A program made the translations under genes and the position numbers. From Pirellulaceae bacterium (GTDB taxonomy: Bacteria; Planctomycetota; Planctomycetia; Pirellulales; Pirellulaceae), in the NCBI GenBank assembly GCA_024102795.1, contig JAGFJK010000232.1:1-24251 (forward strand): a stretch of 24,251 nt of DNA, given 5' to 3'. Numbering within the stretch: position 1 is the stretch's first letter; every line of letters starts with the position of its first letter. Positions 2,413 to 16,627 of the stretch are shown here, piece after piece. The notes under the pieces were generated by a model, which saw only the letters and a list, made by a program, of their open reading frames with translations, had not been told where the DNA came from and made no database searches.

Positions 2413-4563
2413 TCAATACTCCCAGACTGTGTGGTAGGCCCCGATCAGCTCAAAGTACTCCAGCAACCGGTGGTAGAACGGATGCCCGGCAATCGTGGCG
2501 CTGTCCCCGACAACGATCAGCTTGCGGCGAGCGCGCGTCAAGGCGACGTTCATCCGCCGCGTGTCGGCCAGAAAGCCGATCTCGCCCGTGCTGTTGGAGC
2601 GGACCAGCGAAATGATGATCGCCTCCTTTTCACGACCCTGGAAACCGTCCACGCTGTCGACTTCCAGCCCGGCGTGCCGCAGTTGCTGCCGCAGCAGGCG
2701 GACCTGGGCCGCGTAGGGCGTGATCACGCCAAGCTGCGTGGCCGGCAGGCCGGCGGCCAGCAACTCCTCGGCCTGCCGCACGACGAACTCCGCCTCGCGC
2801 AGGTTCAAGCGGCTCTCGCCGTCCGCCTCCTGTTGTTCGTCATAACCCGCGCCCGCCGTATCGATAAAGTGTACTGGCGAGGTAGACAGTTCCGTGGCCT
2901 GCACGCCGGGCAAGCCCTGCCGCGGCCGTTCAACGCTGGCCAGCAGATGCTCTCGCACGCTGTCGTCCGCCACCAGGCTGCCTTCGTAGAATTCGTCTGA
3001 CGAAAACTCCATGATCTGCTGATGCATGCGGTATTGGCGGGTGAGCTGGCGTGCCAGCCGGGGTCCTTCGCGGTCCATCAACCGTTCCAGCAGGCTGACG
3101 CCGAACCCTTCGCGGGCGGCCGGCTGAGAGACCACGGTCGGCGGCAACTGGCAATGGTCGCCGGCCAGGATCAAGCGTTCGCAGCGCAGCAGCACGGTCC
3201 AGCAGCCAGGCTCCGTGGTCTGGCACGCTTCATCGACCACCGCCAGGTCGAATCTCCGCTGGCCGAGATGCCGGGAGTCGAGCCCGGTGGTGGTGGCGCA
3301 GATCACCGTGGCCTGGTCCAGGATCTGCTGGACGGCCTGGCGTTCCAGCCGGCGAGCGTCGTCGAGCAGCGTGCGGGCCTCGTCGCGCATTTCCCGCTTG
3401 GCTCCCGGCAGCGGTTTGGCCCGCGTGTACCGCGACGCGCGATCCCGCAAGCCGTCGGCCTGCCGGATCAGCTTCTGAGCAAGGCGCGCGTCGGGGTGCT
3501 TGTCCACCAGGTAATCCAGCGTGGCGTCGCGCAAGTGCGGCAGCACCCGGGCCGGATGCCCCAGGCGCACGGCGCGTTCCCCGTGGCTCAGCAGCCGTTC
3601 CAGCATGTTGTCCACACCCAGGTTACTGGGCGCGCAGGCCAGCACCTGTTCGCCGCGCAGCACGGCCTGGCGGATCAGTTCCACCACCGTCGTCGTCTTG
3701 CCGGTACCGGGCGGACCATGAATCAGCGCCGTGTCCACGGCCGACAACGCGAACCCGACCGCCTCGCGCTGCGGCTCATTCAACGACTGGTCCAAAATGG
3801 CCAGCGGAACCTTCAGCGGCTGGAAACGGAACTGGCCGCCCTCGACCAGCAACTGCCGCAACTCGGCCAGGCGGTCCCCGCGCGCCGCGGCCGCTCGCTG
3901 CAACGCCTCGCGCTGCCGGCGGCGAGCGACTTCGTCGAACGCCAGGTCCACTCGGAACGTGCTTTCGCCCAGCTCCTCCGGCTCCTGCTCGAACGCTACC
4001 TGCACTAGCTTGCCTTGCCGCCGGCTGATCACGCCCCGCCAGTTCGCGCGAGGCGTTTCGACTTCGGGTGACAGGACGACCGGCGAACCGGCGTCGAGTC
4101 GCGTCCAGGGCAGCTCCTCGCGGTCCTTGCGGACCAGCGTCACCAGCGTGCGGTTGCCCAGCCCCGCCTCGATGTCCTCGACCACCAGACGGATCAGCGT
4201 GGTCCCGGCCCGCTGCGCGTCCTCGCCGGACATCCGCTGCGTGGCCAGCAGCAACTGCTCGGCCTCCGCCTCGGCTTCCATGTCCAGCAGGCGAGCCAGT
4301 CGCTGAAAGTGGTCTTCGTCTCCCGGCTTCTTGGCGATCTGGTACCAGGCTCGGATATGGTAGTGGTCCAGTTGCGTGCCATCGAGCGCCCGCACCAGAT
4401 CGTCCAGCGACCGTTGCGGCACCTCGATCGTCGCCTCGCGGCCGTGAACCTCGATCGCTCCCAGCTTGGCCTTGGCAATGCCGCCGACCTGCACCAGCAG
4501 ACGGACCAGCGTCCCGCGCGTGGTGCGGGGCGGGAGCGAGCCAAGATGCAGGAGAGCGTTCAC
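2413..4563 (-). CDS. Superfamily-1 helicase of the Upf1/IGHMBP2/DNA2-like family with an N-terminal DbpA-like RNA-binding domain
   Basis: Over 716 aa the protein shows Walker A (GPPGTGKTTT), Walker B/motif II (VVDEACQ), LILAGDHCQLPPTV (motif III), and the C-terminal motifs VDGFQGREKEAIIIS and TRARRKLIVVG (motifs V/VI). The N-terminal 80 aa (GTLVRLLVQVGGIAKAKLGAIEVHGREATIEVPQ) resemble the DbpA RNA-binding fold. Confidence 0.85.
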   Translation of the reverse strand: MNALLHLGSLPPRTTRGTLVRLLVQVGGIAKAKLGAIEVHGREATIEVPQRSLDDLVRALDGTQLDHYHIRAWYQIAKKPGDEDHFQRLARLLDMEAEAEAEQLLLATQRMSGEDAQRAGTTLIRLVVEDIEAGLGNRTLVTLVRKDREELPWTRLDAGSPVVLSPEVETPRANWRGVISRRQGKLVQVAFEQEPEELGESTFRVDLAFDEVARRRQREALQRAAAARGDRLAELRQLLVEGGQFRFQPLKVPLAILDQSLNEPQREAVGFALSAVDTALIHGPPGTGKTTTVVELIRQAVLRGEQVLACAPSNLGVDNMLERLLSHGERAVRLGHPARVLPHLRDATLDYLVDKHPDARLAQKLIRQADGLRDRASRYTRAKPLPGAKREMRDEARTLLDDARRLERQAVQQILDQATVICATTTGLDSRHLGQRRFDLAVVDEACQTTEPGCWTVLLRCERLILAGDHCQLPPTVVSQPAAREGFGVSLLERLMDREGPRLARQLTRQYRMHQQIMEFSSDEFYEGSLVADDSVREHLLASVERPRQGLPGVQATELSTSPVHFIDTAGAGYDEQQEADGESRLNLREAEFVVRQAEELLAAGLPATQLGVITPYAAQVRLLRQQLRHAGLEVDSVDGFQGREKEAIIISLVRSNSTGEIGFLADTRRMNVALTRARRKLIVVGDSATIAGHPFYHRLLEYFELIGAYHTVWEY

Positions 4564-6469: not shown

Positions 6470-8056
6470 CTATCGAGCGGGCGGTGGCGATCCGGCGGCC
6501 AGCAGCGGGTCGCCCGCCGCTCGCTGCTCGGCCTCCAACTGCGTTCGCAACAGTCCGAACCGCTCGGCGTGTCGCGGATCGGCCGACAAATCGCGCAGTT
6601 CCAGCGGGTCCTGCCGCAGATCGAACATCTGGTAACGTTTGGCCTGGGGATAATGGATCAACTTCCAGCGGTCGTCGCGGATCATCCGCTGCGAGTCGCG
6701 GAAGTAGCAGAACACGTGCGCGTAGAGCGAGTCTTCCTCGCCCCGCAGTACGGGCAGCATGCTGCGCCCCTCGACCTGCCGCGGTACCTCAATGCCGCAC
6801 AACTGGCACACCGTCGGATATAGATCGCGGAGGTAGACCTGGGCGTCGCGGCGGACGCCCGCGGGCAGTCCCGAGCCGGCCAGCACCAGCGGCACGCCCA
6901 CCGTATGCTCGTACATGTTCTGCTTGCCGCGCAGCCCGTGGCTGCCGATCGCCAGGCCATGATCGGCCGTGAACACGATCAGCGTGTCTTCCAGCCGGCC
7001 CGCGTCGCGCAGGGCGTCGAAAATGCGGCCGATCTGCTGGTCCAGGTGGGCGATCACGGCGTAATACACGGCCAGCTCCGCGCGCACGTCCTCGGCCGTC
7101 CGCGGCCAAGGCCAGAGCTGTTCGTCACGGCCGCGCAAGTTGCCATGGTCGAACGGATGCTCGGCCAGAAAATTCCCCGGCAGCGGCATCCGCTCGGGCG
7201 GATACTGGTCGCGGAAGCCAGGCGGCCAGAGCAGCGGATCGTGCGGGGCCGTGAAGTTGACGTGCAGGAAGAACGGCCGCTCGCCGGGACGACGAATCAG
7301 CTCGATCGCCGCGTCGGCGAACCGTCGGCTGATGTCGGGAGTCAGTCCCACGCCGTGTGCCGGAAACAACTGGCCGTCGTCGGTCTGAAAGATCCAGCCG
7401 CGATAGCCCGTCACTTCATGTCCGTTGGCGTCCTGCCGCGGTTGCCAGAACTGGCCGCCCCCGCCCGCGTACAAACCGCGGCTCTCCTCGTAGCCTCGCA
7501 AGTTCGGGCGGCCGTCGTTGTGCCACTTGCCCACGTACCAGGTGTGGTAGCCCGCCTGCCGCATGGTGTGAGCCCAGGTGGGTAACGACGGGTCAATCTG
7601 CCGAGCGAAATCCAGCACGCCGTTGCGGAAGCCGCTGCAGCCGGACAGGATCTCCGCGCGGCTGGGTGTGCAGATCGGGTTGGGGCAGACGGCACGAGTC
7701 ATCAACACGCCTCGGCGAGCCAGCGTGTCCAGGTGCGGCGTCTTGATCGGCGCCTGGTTCAGGATGCCCAGCGCATCCGGCCGCATGTCGTCGGCCACCA
7801 GCAACAGCACGTTAGGCCTCGGCCGCTGTTCGGCCAGCGCGGTTCTGGCCGCCCACGGCAGATGGGCCAGAAGTAGCCCGGCCAGCAGTGGTGCGAGGAA
7901 GCAGCGGGCGAGTGGCGTGCCGGTTGCGGTGCGCGCCGCGGGCGAGGCGGGAAGGAGGCTTGAAGAAGTGTTGGGGTGAAGCGTGCGCCGGGGCACGCTA
8001 CTTTCGCGGAGCGAAAGGCGACAATGCCGGGGCGAAAGGCGACAATGGCGCGTCAT
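6470..8056 (-). CDS. Sulfatase (formylglycine-dependent arylsulfatase family), secreted. The start codon is uncertain, and the annotated N-terminus overlaps a repeat element.
   Basis: It has the sulfatase signature [11 protein letters not shown] (C-x-P-x-R), [11 protein letters not shown] metal-binding residues, and GKWH, a signal-peptide-like hydrophobic stretch ([26 protein letters not shown]). The ATG at 8056 overlaps the upstream ABC ATPase stop as ATGA, but the first 20 or so codons translate the dispersed repeat ([12 protein letters not shown]), so the true start may lie downstream. Confidence 0.82.
7997..8050. repeat. Short dispersed palindromic repeat, direct copy plus a half-copy, preceded by the hairpin GCGTGC-GCCGGG-GCACGC
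   Basis: GCTACTTTCGCGGAGCGAAAGGCGACAATGCCG is followed by GGGCGAAAGGCGACAATGGCG. It is nearly identical to 2361-2392. It sits at the junction between the ABC ATPase and the sulfatase. Confidence 0.7.
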
Positions 8057-9150
8057 AGCGCGGCTCCTGTGTCGTTGTCGAACAGGTGAGCGTGGGTGGC
8101 GTGGAAGTGCAGCGTGAGCTGATCGCCGCGCTGGAACCGCTGGTGCGAGTCCACTCGCACAACCAGCTCATGCGCTCCGCAGACCGCGTCCAGGATCGTC
8201 TCCGCTCCCAGCGGCTGAGCCACCACGACCTGGCCCGAGGCGGAGCTCCACCCGCCTTCCCGCGCCGCGCCGTTGCCGCAGGCCATGTGTTCGGGCCGGA
8301 TCCCCAGCGTCACCCGCTTGCCGGCCCAGGGACGGTAACGCTCTTGCCGCTCGGCCGGCAGCTCCAGCGCCAGCGACTCGGTGCGGAACGTCCAGCGGTC
8401 CTGTTCCACCCGCAGCTCGCCCTCCAGAAAGTTCATCGGCGGGCTGCCGATAAACTCGGCCACGAACTTGTTTCGCGGTGCGTCGTAGACTTCGAGCGGC
8501 CGGCCCACCTGTTGAATCCGGCCCTGGTGCATGACCACGATGCGGTGCCCCATCATCATCGCCTCGGTCTGGTCGTGCGTCACATGGATGCTGGTCGTCT
8601 GCAGCCGCTGGTGCAGCTTGACCAGTTCGGTCCGCATGGTCACTCGCAGCCGGGCGTCGAGGTTGCTGAGCGGTTCGTCGAACAGGAACACGGCCGGATC
8701 GCGGACAATGGCCCGCCCGACCGCGACCCGCTGCCGTTCGCCGCCGGACAGTTGCGCCGGTTTGCGGTGCAGCAGGCCCTCGATACCCAGGATGGCCGCC
8801 GCCGCCCGCACGCGCTGGTCGATCTGGGCGCGCGGGACGCGCCGCATCCTCAGGCCGAACGCCATGTTCTTGTAGACGTTCATGTGCGGATACAAAGCGT
8901 AGTTCTGAAAGACCATGGCGATGTTGCGGTGGCGGGGCGCGACATGGTTCACGACCTGCGGCCCGATCTGGATGGTGCCGCCGTCCAGATCCTCGAGCCC
9001 CGCGATCAGCCGCAGCGTGGTCGATTTTCCGCAGCCCGAAGGTCCGACCAGCACCAGCAGTTCGCCGTCCTCGACGCGCAAGCTCATGTCCTCGACCGCC
9101 GTCGTTTGACCATACCGCTTGGTGACGTTCTGCAGCGTGACTTCCGCCAT
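8053..9150 (-). CDS. ABC transporter ATP-binding protein of the MalK/UgpC type with a C-terminal TOBE-like domain. It is an orphan, with no permease or solute-binding protein adjacent.
   Basis: An ATG at 9150 starts [14 protein letters not shown]. Walker A (GPSGCGKST), ABC signature ([10 protein letters not shown]), Walker B ([11 protein letters not shown]) and H-loop (THD) are present. The 712-aa track ORF extends it artificially across the plus-strand PilT gene. Confidence 0.85.
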
Positions 9151-9336
9151 CGGCAACTGCTGGTTTCCGAGATGTTCTGGCAGGTCGCGGCCGTTTCCGC
9201 CAACTCGGCCCCTGCGCCCGCGGCCGCCCCAATGTAACATAGAGCCTGGCCCACAACCGCTACCCTTGACCAGCTCCGGCGCGGTCGGCCCGTGCCCCCC
9301 CTGCCCCGCGGAGACTCGACGCGAGATGAGTGAACG

Positions 9337-10413
9337 ATGAGCGGACAAACCGTCGCAACAACCGAACCGGTTCCCGACCGGTTGCGGCAGTGGTTGGCCG
9401 CGGCCGTGCGGCAGGAGGCGTCGGACCTGCACCTGGTGCCGCATTATCCGCCCATGCTGCGGGTCCACGGCCTGCTGGTGCCGATCGAGGAGGCCGAACT
9501 GCCCGCGGACGAGGTGACTCGGCTGCTGGCGGCCGTCTGCTCGCCGCGCAACCAGCAGCGGTTCGAGAGCCAGAAGAACATCGACTTCTCGCTGGACGTG
9601 GAGTTGCCCGGCGGCCGGCGGCGGTTCCGCGCCAACTACTTTCTCAGCGGCGGGCAACCTGGCGCCTGTTTCCGAGTCATCCCCGACTCGATTCCCAGTT
9701 TCGACTGGGCCGGCTTTCCCTGGGAGGTGGCCGAACGCCTGGCCCACTTCCGCAATGGCCTGGTGCTGGTGTCCGGCGTGGCCGGCTCCGGCAAGACCAC
9801 CACGCTGGCCATGATCATCCACCTGCTCAACCAGGAAGGCGGCTACCGGATCATCACCGTGGAGGAGCCGGTCGAGTATCTGTTTCCTCGCATGCCGGGC
9901 TCGCTGGTCACCCAGCGCGAAGTGGGCGAGGATGTGGCCTCGTTCGCCGATGGTCTCAAGTACGGGCTCCGCCAGGATCCCGACGTGATCCTGGTGGGCG
10001 AGATCCGCGACCAGGAAACCGCGCAAATGGCGCTCAGCGCGGCCGAGACGGGACACCTGGTCTTCGCCACCTTGCACACGCGCGACGCCAAGGGCGCCAT
10101 CTCCCGCTACGCCGACGTGTTCCCTCAGCACGTCCAGGCCGATGTCCGGGCCCAGTTGGCGCTCAGCCTGCGGGCGGTGATCAGCCAGCACCTGCTGCCG
10201 GGCATCCGGCCGGGCGAGAAGCGCGAGCTGGCGCTGGAAATCCTCTACAACACGGCCCCGATTGCCAGCGGCATTCGTCTGGGCAAGCTGGAGTCGATCG
10301 ACAACAACATCCTGACCGGCCGCGCTCAGGGCATGATCACGCTGGCCGAATCCGTCAAGCGGCTGCTGGCCGCCGGGCGGATCACGCGAGCCACGGCCGA
10401 ACGCTTCGACTGA
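9337..10413 (+). CDS. pilT: Type IV pilus retraction ATPase PilT-family protein (twitching-motility ATPase family). It is an orphan.
   Basis: The 358-aa ORF has Walker A (GVAGSGKTT), Asp box/Walker B ([10 protein letters not shown]), a His box (ATLHT) and a PilT N-terminal domain (LHL...PMLRVHG). No other pilus genes are in the window. Confidence 0.8.
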
Positions 10414-10443
10414 AACAAGAGACGAGGGTTATCGTCCGGGAAT

Positions 10444-10998
10444 TCACCCCGGCTGCCTTGTCGCGAGCCACTTCAAGAGCTGTTCCACGGTGGCCACGTC
10501 GGCCGAATGCTGGCCGCGGAGGGCCTGGCGGACCACGCCCGAAGTGTCGACCAGGAAGGCGCCCTGCAGTTGCCGCACGTCGCCGACCGGCAGCCCAGCG
10601 CCGCCGCGGACCAGCGCTCGCATGGCCGGCGCCCAGACCCGCAAGCCCGCCACCTGGCTGACCCCGGCCAGCGGAATCTGCCAGGCCTGGTAAGCGATCC
10701 GCTGGGGATCGGCCAGGCACGAGCACGGCAGTTTCAACCGCTGGCGAAAGTCGGCCGCTTGAGCTGGACTGCCCATGGTGACCGCCACCACCTGGCCGCC
10801 CGCCGCTTGAATCCGCTGGTAAGCGTCCCGCACGTCGACCACGTGCTCGCGGCACAGCGGTCACCCGAAGTGCCGGACGAACAACAGCACGGTCGGCCGC
10901 TGGCGCCAGAAATCGGAGAGTTGCACCGTTGTGCCCGTGTCATCGGTCAGGGTAACGTCCGGCGCATCCTCGCCCGGCTGGGGATGAGCGACAGGCAT
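10444..10998 (-). CDS. Peroxiredoxin-like (AhpC/TSA or PRXL2-type redoxin) protein with an in-frame TGA at 10861-10863 in place of the first Cys of the CxxC motif. It is a candidate selenoprotein (UxxC), or alternatively a pseudogene.
   Basis: An ATG at 10998 starts MPVAHPQPGEDAPDVTLTDDTGTTVQLSDFWRQRPTVLLFVRHFG-[TGA]-PLCREHVVDVRDAYQRIQAAG... and the frame continues unchanged into the 132-aa track ORF (10444-10842). The redoxin family motif is FxRHFGCxxCR, so the TGA sits exactly at the catalytic Cys position. A hairpin (GCACG-UGGUCGA-CGUGC) lies about 12 nt downstream of the UGA. Confidence 0.55.
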
Positions 10999-11076
10999 GA
11001 GCGGACTCCTTCCTGAGTTCTCGGCGGCAGGAAAAGGCGGCCTGGACGGCGCCGCTTTGAGCGTCGGTCTTGGTGG

Positions 11077-11082
11077 ATTATA
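11077..11082 (-). promoter_or_regulatory. Perfect TATAAT hexamer (minus strand) about 80 nt upstream of the peroxiredoxin-like gene start. It is a possible -10 element.
   Basis: The minus strand reads ...GCGCGCCGGGCTATAATCCACCAAG... within the 148-bp gap between the giant gene stop (11147) and the prx-like ATG (10998). There is no convincing TTGACA at -35. An AT-only hexamer is rare in a sequence with this GC content. Confidence 0.2.
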
Positions 11083-11146: not shown

Positions 11147-14100
11147 CTACGACTGCTGGTGGGTACCGGTTCCGGCCTGGGTCCGCGTGCCGGGCTGCCG
11201 CTGGCTGGCGCCCTCCAGGTCGCCGATCAGCACGCGGTAGCTCGCCAGGCACTGCTCCAGCGACTCGCGCAACTGCCGGATATCGGACTGCTGTTGCTGG
11301 GACGCGGACAGCAGCGGCTGCAGCCAGGACTGCATCAGTTCGAACTGGCTGTGCATCACGTCCAGGATGGAGCGGGGCACTTTGTGCATGACCGAGATGC
11401 GCTGCAAGGGGCGATTCGTGTCGACCGGGACCGCTCCGGTGGTGAGCGCCCGCAGCTCCTCGCTCAGCTTCAGCATGGCGTCGGCGGCCAGCGCCGCGGC
11501 CCCGTGCGACGGGTCGTGCGAGTTCCCGTCCGCGGGCCGCTCGGCGACGGCCGCCGACAGCGCCTGGCCGATCGACTGCAGTCCTTCGCGGACCGCACCG
11601 ACATTGTCGACCAGTTCTCGCAGTTGCTGCTGCTGTTGCTGTTCGGTCGCGCCGCGGTCCCCGGCCAGCGCGGTGATGCCATCCGAGAGCGTCTGGCGGA
11701 GATGGTGCAGGCCATCGCTGAACGAACTGAGCTGGGCCACGACCAGGCCGACCTTATCGTCCGGGGCCACGCCCCGCAGCTTGACGTTCTGCTGGAACGT
11801 GCGGCAGATCTCCTCCCAGCGGCGGGCCTCGGCCGGACTGAGCAGCCCCAGCATTTCCTTCAGCTTCAGCAGATTCGACTCGGTGTCCGAAGTCAGCGTC
11901 TGGGCGTCGTTTTCATAGCTGGAGAGGATGAGCGTTTCCAGTTCCTGGTCATTCATGATCGGCACGACCCGCTCGGCGATGCGGTTCATGTTGCGGTACG
12001 AGCCCTGCAGCTTGAACGGCGGTTCGGTCCGGTAGTCGTCGGACTGGGCGGCCGAGCGGATGTACTGGCGGTTGACCCGCAGGATGACGTCCCGCACGCG
12101 GAGCAGCTTTTTCATCGTGGCGACCATCTCGTCGAGTTCCTCGAGCGAGTAGTTGCCTTCCAGTTCGATCCCCTCGCGGGCATCGCGCTGGGCCATTTTG
12201 ATCACGGCATAGACGTCCTGCTGGCTGCGGCTGGCCAGCTTGTTCAGGACCGGGTTGCTGGTCAGGGCGTTCTCCAGATAACTCAGCTCGAACGCCTCGG
12301 CCGTGTCGCCGATGATTTCCCCCAGGTTGTAGACGTCGGCCCGGTTCGAGAGCATGTCGGGAATCTGGAACCGCTGCCCGCTTTCGGTGTAGGGGTTGCC
12401 GGCCATCACCACCACCACCTTCCGACCTCGCAGGTCGTAGGTCCGCGTGTGGCCCTTGTACACGCCTTCGATCTTCCGCTGGGCATCGCAAAGTGAAATG
12501 AACTTCTGCAGCAGTTCGGCGTTGCAGTGCTGGATGTCATCCAGGTAGATCATCACGTTGTCGCCCATCTCGAAAGCCAGGTTCAGCTTCTCGACCTCCT
12601 CGCGGGCCGCCGCGTTGGGCGCCTCGGCCGGATCGAGCGACGTCAGCCGGTGCCCCAGGGCCGGGCCGTTGATCTTCATGAAGATGATGCCCAGGCGATT
12701 GGCAATGTATTCCATCAGGGTCGTCTTGCCGTAGCCCGGCGGCGAGACCACCAGCAGCAGGCCCATCAAATCGGTCCGCTTCTGTTCGCCGACCACGCCG
12801 ATCTGCTTGGCCAGGTTGTCGCCGATCAGCGGCAGGTAGACCGAGTCGATCAGCCGGTTGCGGACGAACGAGGTCAGCACGCGGGGCCGGAACTCCTCCA
12901 GGCGCATGTCGGCGCGGGCCTGTTCGAGCAGTTGCTTCTTGAGCTGCACGGACTGCTGGAAGCGGGGAACCACCTGGGTGGCGAACGCGTGGAGCTTGCG
13001 GAGGAATTGGTTGTAATGCAGCCGGTAGCGCCCGCTTTCGATGACCTGGTGGACGCCGGCCAGTCCGGTCAACTCCCGCTCGGCGTGCCCCTCGACAATC
13101 AGCGCCGGATCGAACTTGCCGCGCAGCAGCAGCAACGCCAGTTCATCGGCGAATTCGCCGCGCTGGCCGGCCGACTGGCCGGCGGGTTGACTGGCCGATT
13201 GGCCGGCGGACTGGCCCGCCGCCTGTTGCTGGATGAAGGCCCGCGCCCAGTCGCGCAGCAGCACGAAACGTCCCCGCGCGTCGCCCTGCACGGCGGCCAG
13301 CGACTGCTGGAAGTGGGCGGAGTAGTTGTTCACCCTCAGGTGACGCTCGAACGCCTCGCACAGTTCGGCGGCCGTCCGGCTGACGACAAAATCCTGGCGG
13401 CCGCTGAGTTCGAGGAACAGGTATTCGGCCGCTTCCTCCACCAGGTCATCCGGGAACAGTTCCCAGCGGAGGCAGAAATCCCGCAGCAGCTCGCCGAGTT
13501 CCGCCACGTAGTGCGCCCGCTCGGTGGCTTGCGGGAACAGCCGGGCGACGGTGCCGGCTCCGCGGAGCTTGTCGGCCCAGGTGCCGCGACGGTCCGGGTC
13601 CACGAACAGCAGCCAGCCGCAGACGGCCAGGGCCCGGGCCCGCGTGTCGAAGCGCAACAGGCCCAGCTCGGACTGCATTTCCAGCAGGGCCGTGAGGATC
13701 TTCGCGGCGTCCTGGTCGCTGACGCCCTTGACGTACGATTCGTCGTAGCGGGGCGCCATGAACTGCTGCACCAGGGCCAGCCGATCCTCGGCCGCCAAAC
13801 GCAGCACGCGCTCCTGCTCGGCCGGCGGTTGCGCTCGCAGTTGTTCGAACAGCAGCCAGGCCAGGTATTCGCCGCGATAGACTTGCCGGTTCTCGCTGAC
13901 CAGCAGTTGATCCCAAACCTCGCGCGTGGCCAACAGCCGCTCGTCCCGAATCGGCTCGAAGAACCGCGTGCCGGTCAGGTGCAGGCACAATTGATCCTCG
14001 TGCAGGACGCACGTCAGATCCAGGGCCTGGACGTTGACCGAGAAATTGTGGCGGCCCAGGCGGATCACGTTCTCGCCGCCGACGAACAGCTCGCGGCGGT

Positions 14101-16627
14101 CCTTCAACTGGCGGACGGCATCCTCGCGGATCGTCTTCAGCCGGCTCTGGATGTCGTCCACCTTGACCGAATCGTCCAGTTCCTGCAGTTGCCGCACGAG
14201 ATCCCGGACCTTGTCGATCATCAGGTCGGCGGCGAAGTAGGCGTGAATCTCGTTGACGGTCTGCAGTTGATCGACGCGGGACTTGATGCCCTTGAGGATC
14301 CGATCGGCCGCTCCGCTCAGCGCCGCGGCCCGCCGGTTACGGGCCTCCACCAGTTGCAGCTTGCGGGTTTCAAACGCCGCGTAGACTTCCTCCCGCTTGT
14401 CGGTCAACTGCCCGACAAACTCGTCGAATTCCGCGAACCGCCCTTCCAGCTCCTCGATCTGCACCATCAGCCTGGTGAGGAACTCCTCGCACTTCTCCGC
14501 CGTGTCGGCGATGTCCAGGTAGTTGACGACGGCCTGGCCGAGCAGTTTCAGTTGCGAGGTGAATTCGGCGACCCCTTCCACCGCCAGCAGCTCGCGGATC
14601 TTGGTCTTCAGTGCCGCGCGGGCCACGTTGACCTGCGAGAAGATCGTGGAGATGTTGTCGATGATCCGCGTCCGCTGCGTGGCGTCGTCGATCTTCAGAT
14701 TGCCGACCACGTCGATCAACATTTCCAGTTCGCCGGCCGACTGCTGCACCTGCTCCTCCAGCGCCCGAGCGTCGGTGACCTTCTTCAGGCCCTCGACCGC
14801 CTGCTGCTGGTCCGCCACGCGACGCGCGTAGGGTGCCAGGGCATCGTCGCGCAGCAGGAAAGCCACGCAGCGGCGGGCGAGCTGGTCGGACTGCTGGACC
14901 ACCTGCTGCTCCAGGTGCTCGATGCGGGCCGTGTCGGCGTAGCGCAGGTCCCGCAGCGCGACGATCTCGCCGCGGGATTGCCGCAGGCGGCCCAGCGCGG
15001 CGACGAACTCCAGGATCTGCTCGAACCGCTGGCGGTGGATCGCGGCCAGGTTGCTGGCCGTCTCCTGCTCGATACGCGCCATCTGGCTGGCCGTGTTCTG
15101 CTTGACGCGGACGACCTTCTCGAACTCGTTGACGGCCGACGCGGCGGCCTCCTTGATCTGTTGCAGCACCTCCTTCAGCTGGAACGTTTCGGGTTTGTCC
15201 AGCCAGAAATACGAGTCGATGATGTCCTGCGACAGCTTGACCAGGTCGACGTACAGGTCGGCGTAGGTGTCTTCCTTGTCGATCAGGGCCAGCAGCTCGT
15301 GGCACTCCGCCATGCCCCGCACGATGTCGCGGTTGCCGATCTTGTAGAGCAGCGAGTCGGATTGCTGGACCGGCACGTAGCTTTCGCCGACGTAAGGAGT
15401 GCGCCAGATCTGGATGGCGTGGTGCTTCTGCGGCTCCTCGTGGCGTTTGAAGCAAGTCAGCTCGCCGCCCTCGAACAGCGTGAAGCCGTGACAGACCAGC
15501 GGCGTGTCGACCCGCTGTTCGATCACGTTGTAGCGCAGCAGCACGTAGCTGCCTTGCTCGCGGTTGGTGAAGACGTACAGGTAGTCTTCGCCGTTGGGAG
15601 CGACGATCCGCCGTTCGAACTGCATCCCCTGCTGGTCGCTCTCGAACGTCTTGTACTGGCCGTTCTGCAGGTAGTAGCCGTTGGCGAAGATCAGTCCCTG
15701 GTCGTCCGGCAGCAGCACGCAGGCGTGGGCGATAGAATCGATGCGGCGGGCCGTGCGGGTCTTTTCGTTGTAGACGATGTGCCGGAAGTCGCGCTCCTGG
15801 TAGGGGCGGATCTTCAGCAGGATGATATGCCCGACGATGGCATAGTAGATCTCGGCATCGTCCAGCGTCTGGTCGGCATTGTCGACGTCCTCGCGGTAGA
15901 TGCCTTCGCCCGAATCGGTGTTGTTTTCGATCTTGATCGTCAGGTCGCCGCCCACGGTTTCCACGAACAGCCGGTCGCGGATCGAGATGTGGGGAAACCT
16001 GCCGGCCTGGTGGGCGTCGCGCGTGGTGCGGATCCACTCGAAGTCGTGCTGCGGCGGGTTCCGCACTTCATGATCGCTGCGGTTGTCGACGTATTCCAGC
16101 CGGTCGTCCCGCCGCAGCCACTTGAGCGCCTTGATGTCGGCGGCCGTCTTGCCCACCTGGAACACCAGGTACAGGTAGGGTCCCTGGCTGAAGAAGCGGG
16201 CGAACTGCGACGTCTTGTAGTAGCGGTAAATCTCGCGGAACTCCCGCCCGAACTGCTCGTTGCCCAGCAGGTCCAGCGACAGTTCGTGAAACGTGCCCTC
16301 GGCGAACCGATAGACCGAGAACACGTCGGCCAGCTCCGTTTCGGTCTTCAGGCCCAGGTGCACGTTGTAGCCGAACAGAAACACCTGGCCGAAGGCGACC
16401 ATGTCCCGCGGCACGCAGTTGTGCGCCGTGGTGATCCGCTCGGTGCCCAGCAGGGCCATATCGATCGAACCGAAGACCTCCTTGCGGGCGGCGTTGAGCT
16501 GCTGCAGCCGGCCGCGCAACTGGCCGGCCTGCGCCAGCAGCCGCTGGCGGATGATCTCGTAGGTTCCGCCTTCCAGCGCCGCCGCGGCGGAGCCTTCGGG
16601 CGTTTGAGGCGAGTCGGCTTGAGCCAT
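11147..16627 (-). CDS. Giant (1826 aa) uncharacterized protein with an N-terminal beta-rich region, extensive coiled coil, a MoxR/AAA_5-like AAA+ ATPase domain and a Q-rich C-terminus
   Basis: An ATG at 16627 has a GGGGAG Shine-Dalgarno-like motif 8 nt upstream and lies 16 nt after the flotillin stop. Walker A is LLVVSPPGYGKTTL (nt about 12719-12745). Walker B is VMIYLDDIQH (nt about 12535-12550). A sensor-1-like VVVMAGNP and IPDMLSNRADV resemble the MoxR-type LPEALLDRF motif. Residues 480-1000 are heptad-rich (EQ/LR-rich) coiled coil. Confidence 0.85.
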   Translation of the reverse strand: MAQADSPQTPEGSAAAALEGGTYEIIRQRLLAQAGQLRGRLQQLNAARKEVFGSIDMALLGTERITTAHNCVPRDMVAFGQVFLFGYNVHLGLKTETELADVFSVYRFAEGTFHELSLDLLGNEQFGREFREIYRYYKTSQFARFFSQGPYLYLVFQVGKTAADIKALKWLRRDDRLEYVDNRSDHEVRNPPQHDFEWIRTTRDAHQAGRFPHISIRDRLFVETVGGDLTIKIENNTDSGEGIYREDVDNADQTLDDAEIYYAIVGHIILLKIRPYQERDFRHIVYNEKTRTARRIDSIAHACVLLPDDQGLIFANGYYLQNGQYKTFESDQQGMQFERRIVAPNGEDYLYVFTNREQGSYVLLRYNVIEQRVDTPLVCHGFTLFEGGELTCFKRHEEPQKHHAIQIWRTPYVGESYVPVQQSDSLLYKIGNRDIVRGMAECHELLALIDKEDTYADLYVDLVKLSQDIIDSYFWLDKPETFQLKEVLQQIKEAAASAVNEFEKVVRVKQNTASQMARIEQETASNLAAIHRQRFEQILEFVAALGRLRQSRGEIVALRDLRYADTARIEHLEQQVVQQSDQLARRCVAFLLRDDALAPYARRVADQQQAVEGLKKVTDARALEEQVQQSAGELEMLIDVVGNLKIDDATQRTRIIDNISTIFSQVNVARAALKTKIRELLAVEGVAEFTSQLKLLGQAVVNYLDIADTAEKCEEFLTRLMVQIEELEGRFAEFDEFVGQLTDKREEVYAAFETRKLQLVEARNRRAAALSGAADRILKGIKSRVDQLQTVNEIHAYFAADLMIDKVRDLVRQLQELDDSVKVDDIQSRLKTIREDAVRQLKDRRELFVGGENVIRLGRHNFSVNVQALDLTCVLHEDQLCLHLTGTRFFEPIRDERLLATREVWDQLLVSENRQVYRGEYLAWLLFEQLRAQPPAEQERVLRLAAEDRLALVQQFMAPRYDESYVKGVSDQDAAKILTALLEMQSELGLLRFDTRARALAVCGWLLFVDPDRRGTWADKLRGAGTVARLFPQATERAHYVAELGELLRDFCLRWELFPDDLVEEAAEYLFLELSGRQDFVVSRTAAELCEAFERHLRVNNYSAHFQQSLAAVQGDARGRFVLLRDWARAFIQQQAAGQSAGQSASQPAGQSAGQRGEFADELALLLLRGKFDPALIVEGHAERELTGLAGVHQVIESGRYRLHYNQFLRKLHAFATQVVPRFQQSVQLKKQLLEQARADMRLEEFRPRVLTSFVRNRLIDSVYLPLIGDNLAKQIGVVGEQKRTDLMGLLLVVSPPGYGKTTLMEYIANRLGIIFMKINGPALGHRLTSLDPAEAPNAAAREEVEKLNLAFEMGDNVMIYLDDIQHCNAELLQKFISLCDAQRKIEGVYKGHTRTYDLRGRKVVVVMAGNPYTESGQRFQIPDMLSNRADVYNLGEIIGDTAEAFELSYLENALTSNPVLNKLASRSQQDVYAVIKMAQRDAREGIELEGNYSLEELDEMVATMKKLLRVRDVILRVNRQYIRSAAQSDDYRTEPPFKLQGSYRNMNRIAERVVPIMNDQELETLILSSYENDAQTLTSDTESNLLKLKEMLGLLSPAEARRWEEICRTFQQNVKLRGVAPDDKVGLVVAQLSSFSDGLHHLRQTLSDGITALAGDRGATEQQQQQQLRELVDNVGAVREGLQSIGQALSAAVAERPADGNSHDPSHGAAALAADAMLKLSEELRALTTGAVPVDTNRPLQRISVMHKVPRSILDVMHSQFELMQSWLQPLLSASQQQQSDIRQLRESLEQCLASYRVLIGDLEGASQRQPGTRTQAGTGTHQQS
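13163..13222. repeat. In-frame imperfect 12-nt tandem repeat (about 5 units) inside the giant CDS, encoding (A/P)GQS repeats
   Basis: The units are CTGGCCGGCCGA, CTGGCCGGCGGGTTGA, CTGGCCGATTGGCCGGCGGA and CTGGCCCGCCGC. On the minus strand they translate to QQAAGQSAGQSASQPAGQSAGQR, a low-complexity linker. Confidence 0.7.

Follow-up and report, generated by a model that had tools for sequence, protein, structure and literature searches.

Peroxiredoxin-like (Prx-like) selenoproteins were described in the Sargasso Sea survey as proteins with a UxxC motif in place of TxxU (PMC1088965), and the Prx-like family is likewise represented in Table 2 of the GOS study (PMC2398784) and in a 2026 review (PMC13188914). 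The SelL protein contains two selenocysteine (Sec) residues arranged as UxxU, which form a diselenide (PMC3316567). In SELU, which is also a selenoprotein in birds and fish, Sec occupies the position where mammals have Cys, and the gene symbol FAM213A was used for it in a turkey study (PMC4466519). Both UxxC Prx-like selenoproteins and bacterial SECIS elements located within the coding region were already reported in the cited surveys, the earliest from 2005, and the locus analyzed here leaves that knowledge of selenoproteins unchanged.

The gene of interest is located in a stretch of 24,251 nucleotides from a Pirellulaceae bacterium (the whole of this stretch is referred to as the window). 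It is a previously unannotated member of a known and curated selenoprotein family rather than a system of a new type. As judged from sequence comparison, its in-frame TGA almost certainly encodes Sec in a thioredoxin-fold redox protein. We consider it highly probable that the gene specifies a 184-residue SelL-related redoxin whose UGA codon is decoded as Sec via a downstream hairpin that acts as a bacterial SECIS element. This reading is based on four observations: TGA and Cys codons are paired at a single alignment column, the sequence on either side of the TGA is under purifying selection, a hairpin that covaries lies at a constant distance from this codon, and the protein belongs to the curated SelL-related/Prx-like family.

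Gene structure, annotation and protein family

The redoxin gene and all of its features described here lie on the minus strand. The coding sequence (10444..10998) comprises 184 codons, including that of the predicted Sec46, and ends with a terminal TGA stop (10446..10444). It contains only one internal in-frame TGA, at codon 46 (10863..10861), and the open frame that runs from the ATG at 10998 to the terminal stop is the same before and after this codon, as had been stated in the original prediction. The TGA, the first position of the UxxC motif, was assigned as U46 from the comparison of TGA and Cys forms among homologues. It is found in the context ...LLFVRHFG-TGA-PLCREHVVDVRDAYQ, with read-through giving LLFVRHFG-TGA-PLCREHVVDV and the motif FVRHFG-U-PLC-R. 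The second residue of UxxC, Cys49, is encoded by TGC (10854..10852) and is invariant in the orthologue alignment. The N-terminal 45 codons (10864..10998), which encode the beta-strands running into the active site, are kept in frame in the aligned orthologues and are absent from the public annotation.

The public record of the gene, P0001 ('redoxin domain-containing protein'), covers only the C-terminal 132 amino acids and begins at a GTG (10842..10840) that sits within the downstream hairpin. The true start codon, ATG at 10998..10996, is preceded by the Shine-Dalgarno-like sequence GGAAGGAG (11013..11006, read from the sequence) at a distance of 7 nt, which favours this ATG over the annotated internal GTG as the initiation site. 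In a search of 5.8 billion clusters, the seven nearest database proteins were all 129-146 amino acids in length and started directly after the TGA position, a signature of gene callers halting at a conserved in-frame stop. The GTG start is thus a mis-call and the N-terminal truncation an artefact, since the orthologues were given differing downstream starts by gene callers (GTG, ATG and CTG). The main value of the present analysis lies in the comparative SECIS data and in the correction of this annotation, as the fragments in the public record and the seven closest proteins lack the active site.

A weak terminator-like stem-loop, identified by consensus match, is located just past the stop codon (10420..10437, minus strand), where the redoxin and PilT-like genes converge, and its count is close to shuffle expectation. 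A consensus scan upstream of the redoxin gene gave no sigma-70 promoter match. The 148-nt intergenic region 5' of the gene contains a perfect TATAAT hexamer (11077-11082, minus strand) without a matching -35 box. According to Pfam, the neighbouring genes in the window encode a sulfatase, an ABC ATPase, a PilT-like ATPase, a DUF3686 ATPase and a Ser/Thr kinase. The DUF3686 protein, which comprises 1826 amino acids (11147-16627, minus strand) and is encoded immediately upstream of the redoxin gene, matched DUF3686 ('ATPase involved in DNA repair', E = 4e-192), DUF7902 and AAA domains. In the closely related locus L001, a large cut-off gene occupies the same position and orientation. Long overlapping off-frame ORFs are abundant in the window, as is typical of high-GC DNA; for instance, within the ORF at 8053-10191 (minus strand) the real ABC-transporter ATPase spans only about 8053-9165. 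When the window was scanned for additional candidate selenoproteins, only off-frame artefacts came up apart from the TGA at 10863.

For the read-through protein, the NCBIfam model NF040769 ('SelL-related redox protein') gave 138.6 bits against a cutoff of 120 (E = 1.6e-40), the match extending over profile positions 2-171 of 173. The same model was the best one for all nine other family members tested, representing other subfamilies as well as Cys forms, and seven of the nine scored above the cutoff. When U was replaced by C, Pfam searches matched AhpC-TSA (PF00578; 2e-21, 76.5 bits against a threshold of 26), AhpC-TSA_2 (PF13911; 38.1 bits against a gathering threshold of 27) and Redoxin. The structure of a Cys-form homologue, P0008, which is 35% identical to the window protein, was modelled with a pLDDT of 82. 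In this model the first Cys (C54) caps helix 55-66, following the strand 44-48. Its best fold match in the PDB was human prostamide/prostaglandin F synthase (9usa; TM 0.84, E = 9e-11), which we take to be PRXL2B; in this entry both residues of the CxxC pair are mutated (C44S/C47S). Together with the PF13911 match, this supports the earlier assignment of the protein as PRXL2-like. The gene product is therefore predicted to be a thioredoxin-fold redox protein of 184 residues from the SelL-related/Prx-like (PRXL2-like) family, with the active site U46-P-L-C49.

The position of Sec within the active site differs from the one proposed initially, namely that UGA replaces the resolving or peroxidatic Cys of AhpC/TSA proteins. 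In the phmmer alignment to BCP/PrxQ (2cx3), Sec stands opposite the Ser/Thr of the peroxiredoxin TxxC motif (S-P-V-C in 2cx3), and it is Cys49 that stands opposite the peroxidatic Cys. This alignment identifies the site as a thioredoxin-style UxxC.

Conservation of the TGA codon and the downstream hairpin

Two collection scans with alignment of read-through proteins, for which the search peptides excluded the Sec codon, identified 104 more loci. The homologous codon is TGA in 78 distinct sequences from independent genomes and metagenomes and TGC or TGT in 19 distinct homologues, which answers the question, raised with the original prediction, of whether orthologues carry Cys or TGA at this codon. 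About four in five of the distinct sequences found are thus TGA (Sec) forms. These forms occur in Planctomycetota, Acidobacteriota, Actinomycetota, Myxococcota and Tectomicrobia, and the metagenome-assembled genomes (MAGs) with a TGA form include Vicinamibacteria, Acidimicrobiia and Kofleriaceae besides members of Planctomycetota, Tectomicrobia and Actinomycetota. The Cys forms were seen in Acidobacteriaceae, Nitrospirales, Polyangiaceae and Saprospiraceae. The SelL-related family is spread over Planctomycetota, Acidobacteriota, Actinomycetota and Myxococcota of soil and sediment, and it may consist predominantly of selenoenzymes.

Among individual loci, the DNA shows TGA at the homologous codon in L001 (86% identity), L002, L003-L006, L007 and L008, and the upstream open frame continues in frame wherever the contig reaches it. 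When the C-terminal fragment served as query in an exhaustive search without profiles, truncation at the Sec site was seen in 101 of the 150 best cluster representatives, and 47 were full length; each of the six full-length representatives inspected has CxxC. Pairwise dN/dS was 0.10-0.35 upstream of the TGA (34 codons) and 0.03-0.23 downstream of it (110 codons), with dS ranging from about 0.3 to above 1 (saturation) and no frameshifts. These values point to purifying selection acting on both halves of the ORF in the same frame.

In the metagenome contig Ga0055584_100002133 (L047, from position 3094 onward), a TGA-form SelL-related domain (residues 10-173) and an SDR-type oxidoreductase domain (about 229-475) are present in one 507-aa frame, which may represent a fusion of a Sec-redoxin with a dehydrogenase. 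In L002, the selenoprotein gene is directly followed by a gene with tRNA_Me_trans domains (1545-2672), an arrangement that is absent from the window, L001 and L003-L005. Such domains are presumably those of MnmA-type tRNA 2-thiouridylases, and 2-thiouridine is the substrate for 2-selenouridine synthesis. The adjacency of the two genes in L002 is probably a coincidence.

A bSECIS-like hairpin, GCACGU[GGUCG]ACGUGC, is located downstream of the TGA at 10846..10830 of the minus strand, its 5' arm GCACGU corresponding to 10846..10841, its loop GGUCG to 10840..10836 and its 3' arm ACGUGC to 10835..10830. The palindrome recognized at the outset is therefore present, whereas its geometry had to be revised: the stem comprises 6 bp and the loop 5 nt, and the stem begins 14 nt past the UGA instead of about 12. 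Folding of the downstream sequence had been suggested as a check, and as a single sequence the 67 nt after the UGA fold no better than shuffles (z = 0.29); by itself, the hairpin is accordingly not beyond what is expected by chance in GC-rich DNA. A search of the whole window gave no Rfam matches at gathering thresholds, and a match to mir-230, the only one obtained when 10760-10900 was searched with E values up to 10 admitted, was rejected as spurious.

On comparative evidence, both the TGA and the hairpin are far beyond chance. A covariation test at fixed coordinates was performed on 27 sequences that were picked by peptide (U-P-x-C) and not by structure. In the window subfamily, all 162 of the 162 pair cells are standard pairs, and compensatory double changes are found in four of the six stem pairs. 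The observed covariation values were matched by none of 500 shuffles, pairing dropped to 4-69% when the register was slid, and the same helix was predicted independently by RNAalifold. In every TGA subfamily a hairpin is present at a nearly equal distance from the UGA, with the loop centre at +25/+26 or +29.5/+30. The stem sequences vary between subfamilies, as in GCGCCU[GGUCG]AGGCGC, GCAUCUC[GUC]GAGAUGC, GCACCUG[GUC]CAGGUGC, GCGGGCC[GGUCA]GGUCCGC and, in another subfamily, GUGGCCGA[GUU]UCGGCCGC, while the apical loop is GGUCG, GGUCA, GUC, GUU or AGUU. The proposed fit to the bSECIS model with a G/U-containing apical loop thus agrees with the GGUCG loop, the covarying helix and its fixed distance from the UGA.

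The hairpin also appears to constrain the codons in which it is embedded. In subfamily A, the third-position entropy of codons in the hairpin is 0.46 bits as against 0.99 bits (p = 0.016), and in subfamily B the corresponding values are 0.44 and 1.25 bits (p = 0.003). Four-fold-degenerate codons within the hairpin are essentially fixed, and the tolerated changes mostly create G-U wobbles. In subfamily B the hairpin is 94% paired and the covariation within the subfamily is weak, because the hairpin is almost invariant. The median stability of the local hairpin is -11.8 kcal/mol in the Sec forms versus -7.0 kcal/mol in the Cys forms (Mann-Whitney p = 1e-6).

A stable hairpin, GAGACGC[UGGACC]GGGUCUC, was observed 10-41 nt after the TGC codon in the Cys-form homologues of Acidobacteriaceae (L027-L032; e.g. 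L027:10107-10138). Its centre at +24.5 corresponds to the place of the SECIS element in the Sec forms, and its stability reaches -17 kcal/mol in L027. This structure may be a fossil SECIS element left behind by conversion of Sec to Cys.

Proposed decoding of the UGA codon and alternative explanations

With regard to SelB and SECIS function, the identity of the inserted residue and the catalytic cycle, we infer the following scheme. Translation would start at the ATG at 10998, and the hairpin 14 nt past the UGA would serve as a bacterial SECIS element recruiting SelB carrying Sec-tRNA(Sec). At the UGA (10863..10861), Sec would be inserted without termination, and the ribosome would go on to the true stop at 10446..10444. 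Within the protein, Sec46 is predicted to cap the N-terminus of the first helix and to occupy the nucleophile position of CxxC, from which it would attack an oxidised substrate, either a disulfide or a hydroperoxide/endoperoxide. Cys49 would then resolve Sec46 as a selenenylsulfide, whose reduction by a thioredoxin-type reductant would recycle the enzyme. As the nearest characterised relative of the family is the endoperoxide reductase PRXL2B, one can conceive of its members as bacterial Sec-dependent reductases of lipid hydroperoxides or endoperoxides with a physiological role so far undescribed, an assignment that we regard as rather improbable.

The Sec reading suggests that the Pirellulaceae organism from which the window derives is able to decode selenocysteine. 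Neither the window nor about 770 kb of sequence flanking 112 related loci gave a tblastn hit for selA, selB or selD with the E. coli proteins as queries, and ARAGORN identified no tRNA-Sec in the window or the related loci. These negative results leave some room for the alternative explanation that survives best, although it is very unlikely: the UGA would be recoded by a SECIS-like signal in an organism without SelA and SelD, the inserted residue being Cys, delivered by a tRNA-Sec-like tRNA, or near-cognate Trp. The existence of Cys-form homologues likewise indicates that Cys is functionally acceptable at this site. However, the pairing of Sec and Cys at a redox CxxC motif, combined with an fdhF-like GGUC loop near the distance observed in fdhF, is the canonical signature of Sec, and keeping a UGA and a hairpin merely to insert Cys would be costly when TGC would suffice. 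Moreover, full Sec gene sets have been documented in other Planctomycetes, including a Rhodopirellula (PMC4807772). For some of the lineages it is conceivable, though improbable, that the UGA/SECIS pair is decoded with Cys instead of Sec.

Even less probable is a split gene, in which a 45-residue peptide ends at the TGA, a separate 132-residue protein is made downstream, and the hairpin provides translational coupling or regulation. Precisely this two-ORF picture is produced by gene callers, but it would put the two residues of the CxxC active site on separate products, and the Cys homologues are single full-length proteins. The downstream start is also variable, being a GTG in the hairpin in the window, an ATG at the Met of U-P-M-C in other members and a CTG in P0003, and it is not preceded by a ribosome-binding site, whereas a good one is present ahead of the ATG at 10998.

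A pseudogene or a sequencing error had been offered together with the original prediction as the other way of reading this locus, and an assembly error can be grouped with them. According to this explanation, a TGC-to-TGA change in a Cys-type redoxin has left the gene dead or truncated; TGA is indeed one base away from TGC, the publicly annotated product is a 132-aa fragment, and the sequence comes from a MAG. The comparative data refute it, as the same TGA recurs in the 78 distinct sequences, which were sampled independently and come from several phyla, dN/dS is well under 1 on both sides without frameshifts, even at dS above 1, and the covarying hairpin has been kept downstream, so that the probability left for it is minimal. 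The weakest alternative, in which UGA would be a sense codon throughout the genome (as it is in genetic codes 4 or 25), has nothing specific in its favour beyond the in-frame TGA itself and is ruled out on comparative grounds as well, since TGA is the terminal stop of the window gene and of 47 of the 72 TGA-form orthologues (the others ending in TAG in 21 cases and TAA in 4), translation of the remaining window genes with table 11 yields intact Pfam matches, and the window contains no other credible in-frame TGA. The candidate selenoprotein of the original prediction has thereby become considerably stronger, with 78 TGA against 19 TGC/TGT forms at one codon, dN/dS of 0.03-0.35, a covarying hairpin and membership in NF040769.

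Comparison with known selenoproteins and SECIS elements

The comparative set assembled here, which comprises 78 Sec and 19 Cys forms, all of them distinct, and includes several differing stems at the same position, constitutes a clean training set that may be used for finding and correcting SelL-related genes in planctomycete, acidobacterial and actinobacterial MAGs.

Regarding the hairpin, the SECIS element of E. coli fdhF is experimentally established, and in the annotated genome record its loop GGUC occupies nt 22-25 when numbering begins at the U of UGA. The window hairpin resembles it in following the UGA directly within the ORF and in having GGUC in the apical loop; its loop GGUCG occupies nt 24-28, so that GGUC is shifted by 2 nt. 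In contrast to fdhF, the stem in the window is a perfect 6-bp palindrome and the loop comprises 5 nt rather than 4 nt. The fdhF element presumably also has a bulged U, for which the window stem has no equivalent.

Among eukaryotic proteins, the similarity to PRXL2/SelU includes the PF13911 match, the fold match of a Cys-form member to PRXL2B, and the motif R-x-x-G-C/U-x-x-C-R, in which the first position is Sec or Cys. FAM213A, the symbol mentioned above for SELU, we take to be the PRXL2A gene. However, the identity to these proteins is only about 20-23%, and the eukaryotic SECIS element is found in the 3'-UTR, whereas the bacterial hairpin is located within the ORF. The prostaglandin substrates of PRXL2B are not expected in bacteria.

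The Sec-containing peroxiredoxins (TxxU) share the Pfam superfamily and the fold with the window protein, but their Sec replaces the peroxidatic Cys, while here Sec is three residues upstream and Cys49 is at the peroxidatic position. Assignment to this group was ruled out, since in the alignment with 2cx3 Sec is not at the position of the peroxidatic Cys. The relationship to eukaryotic and marine SelL is expressed in the NCBIfam name and in the common Prx-like thioredoxin fold. Unlike SelL, the window protein has a Cys at the second motif position (Cys49, codon TGC), as does every motif-bearing homologue listed; with one Sec codon and TGC at 10854..10852, SelL proper (UxxU) was ruled out.

The closest correspondence is with the Prx-like selenoproteins, also named Prx-like thiol:disulfide oxidoreductases, which share with the window protein a distant homology to pfam00578, UxxC rather than TxxU, a SECIS element within the coding region, and the presence of both Sec and Cys forms. 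The window protein was matched to them by description, and it may belong to 'Prx-like 1' or to another Prx-like subfamily (a published reference being, for example, WP_010940744.1). The first members reported in the surveys were marine and deltaproteobacterial, whereas those found here are mostly Planctomycetota, Acidobacteriota and Actinomycetota of soil, sediment and freshwater.
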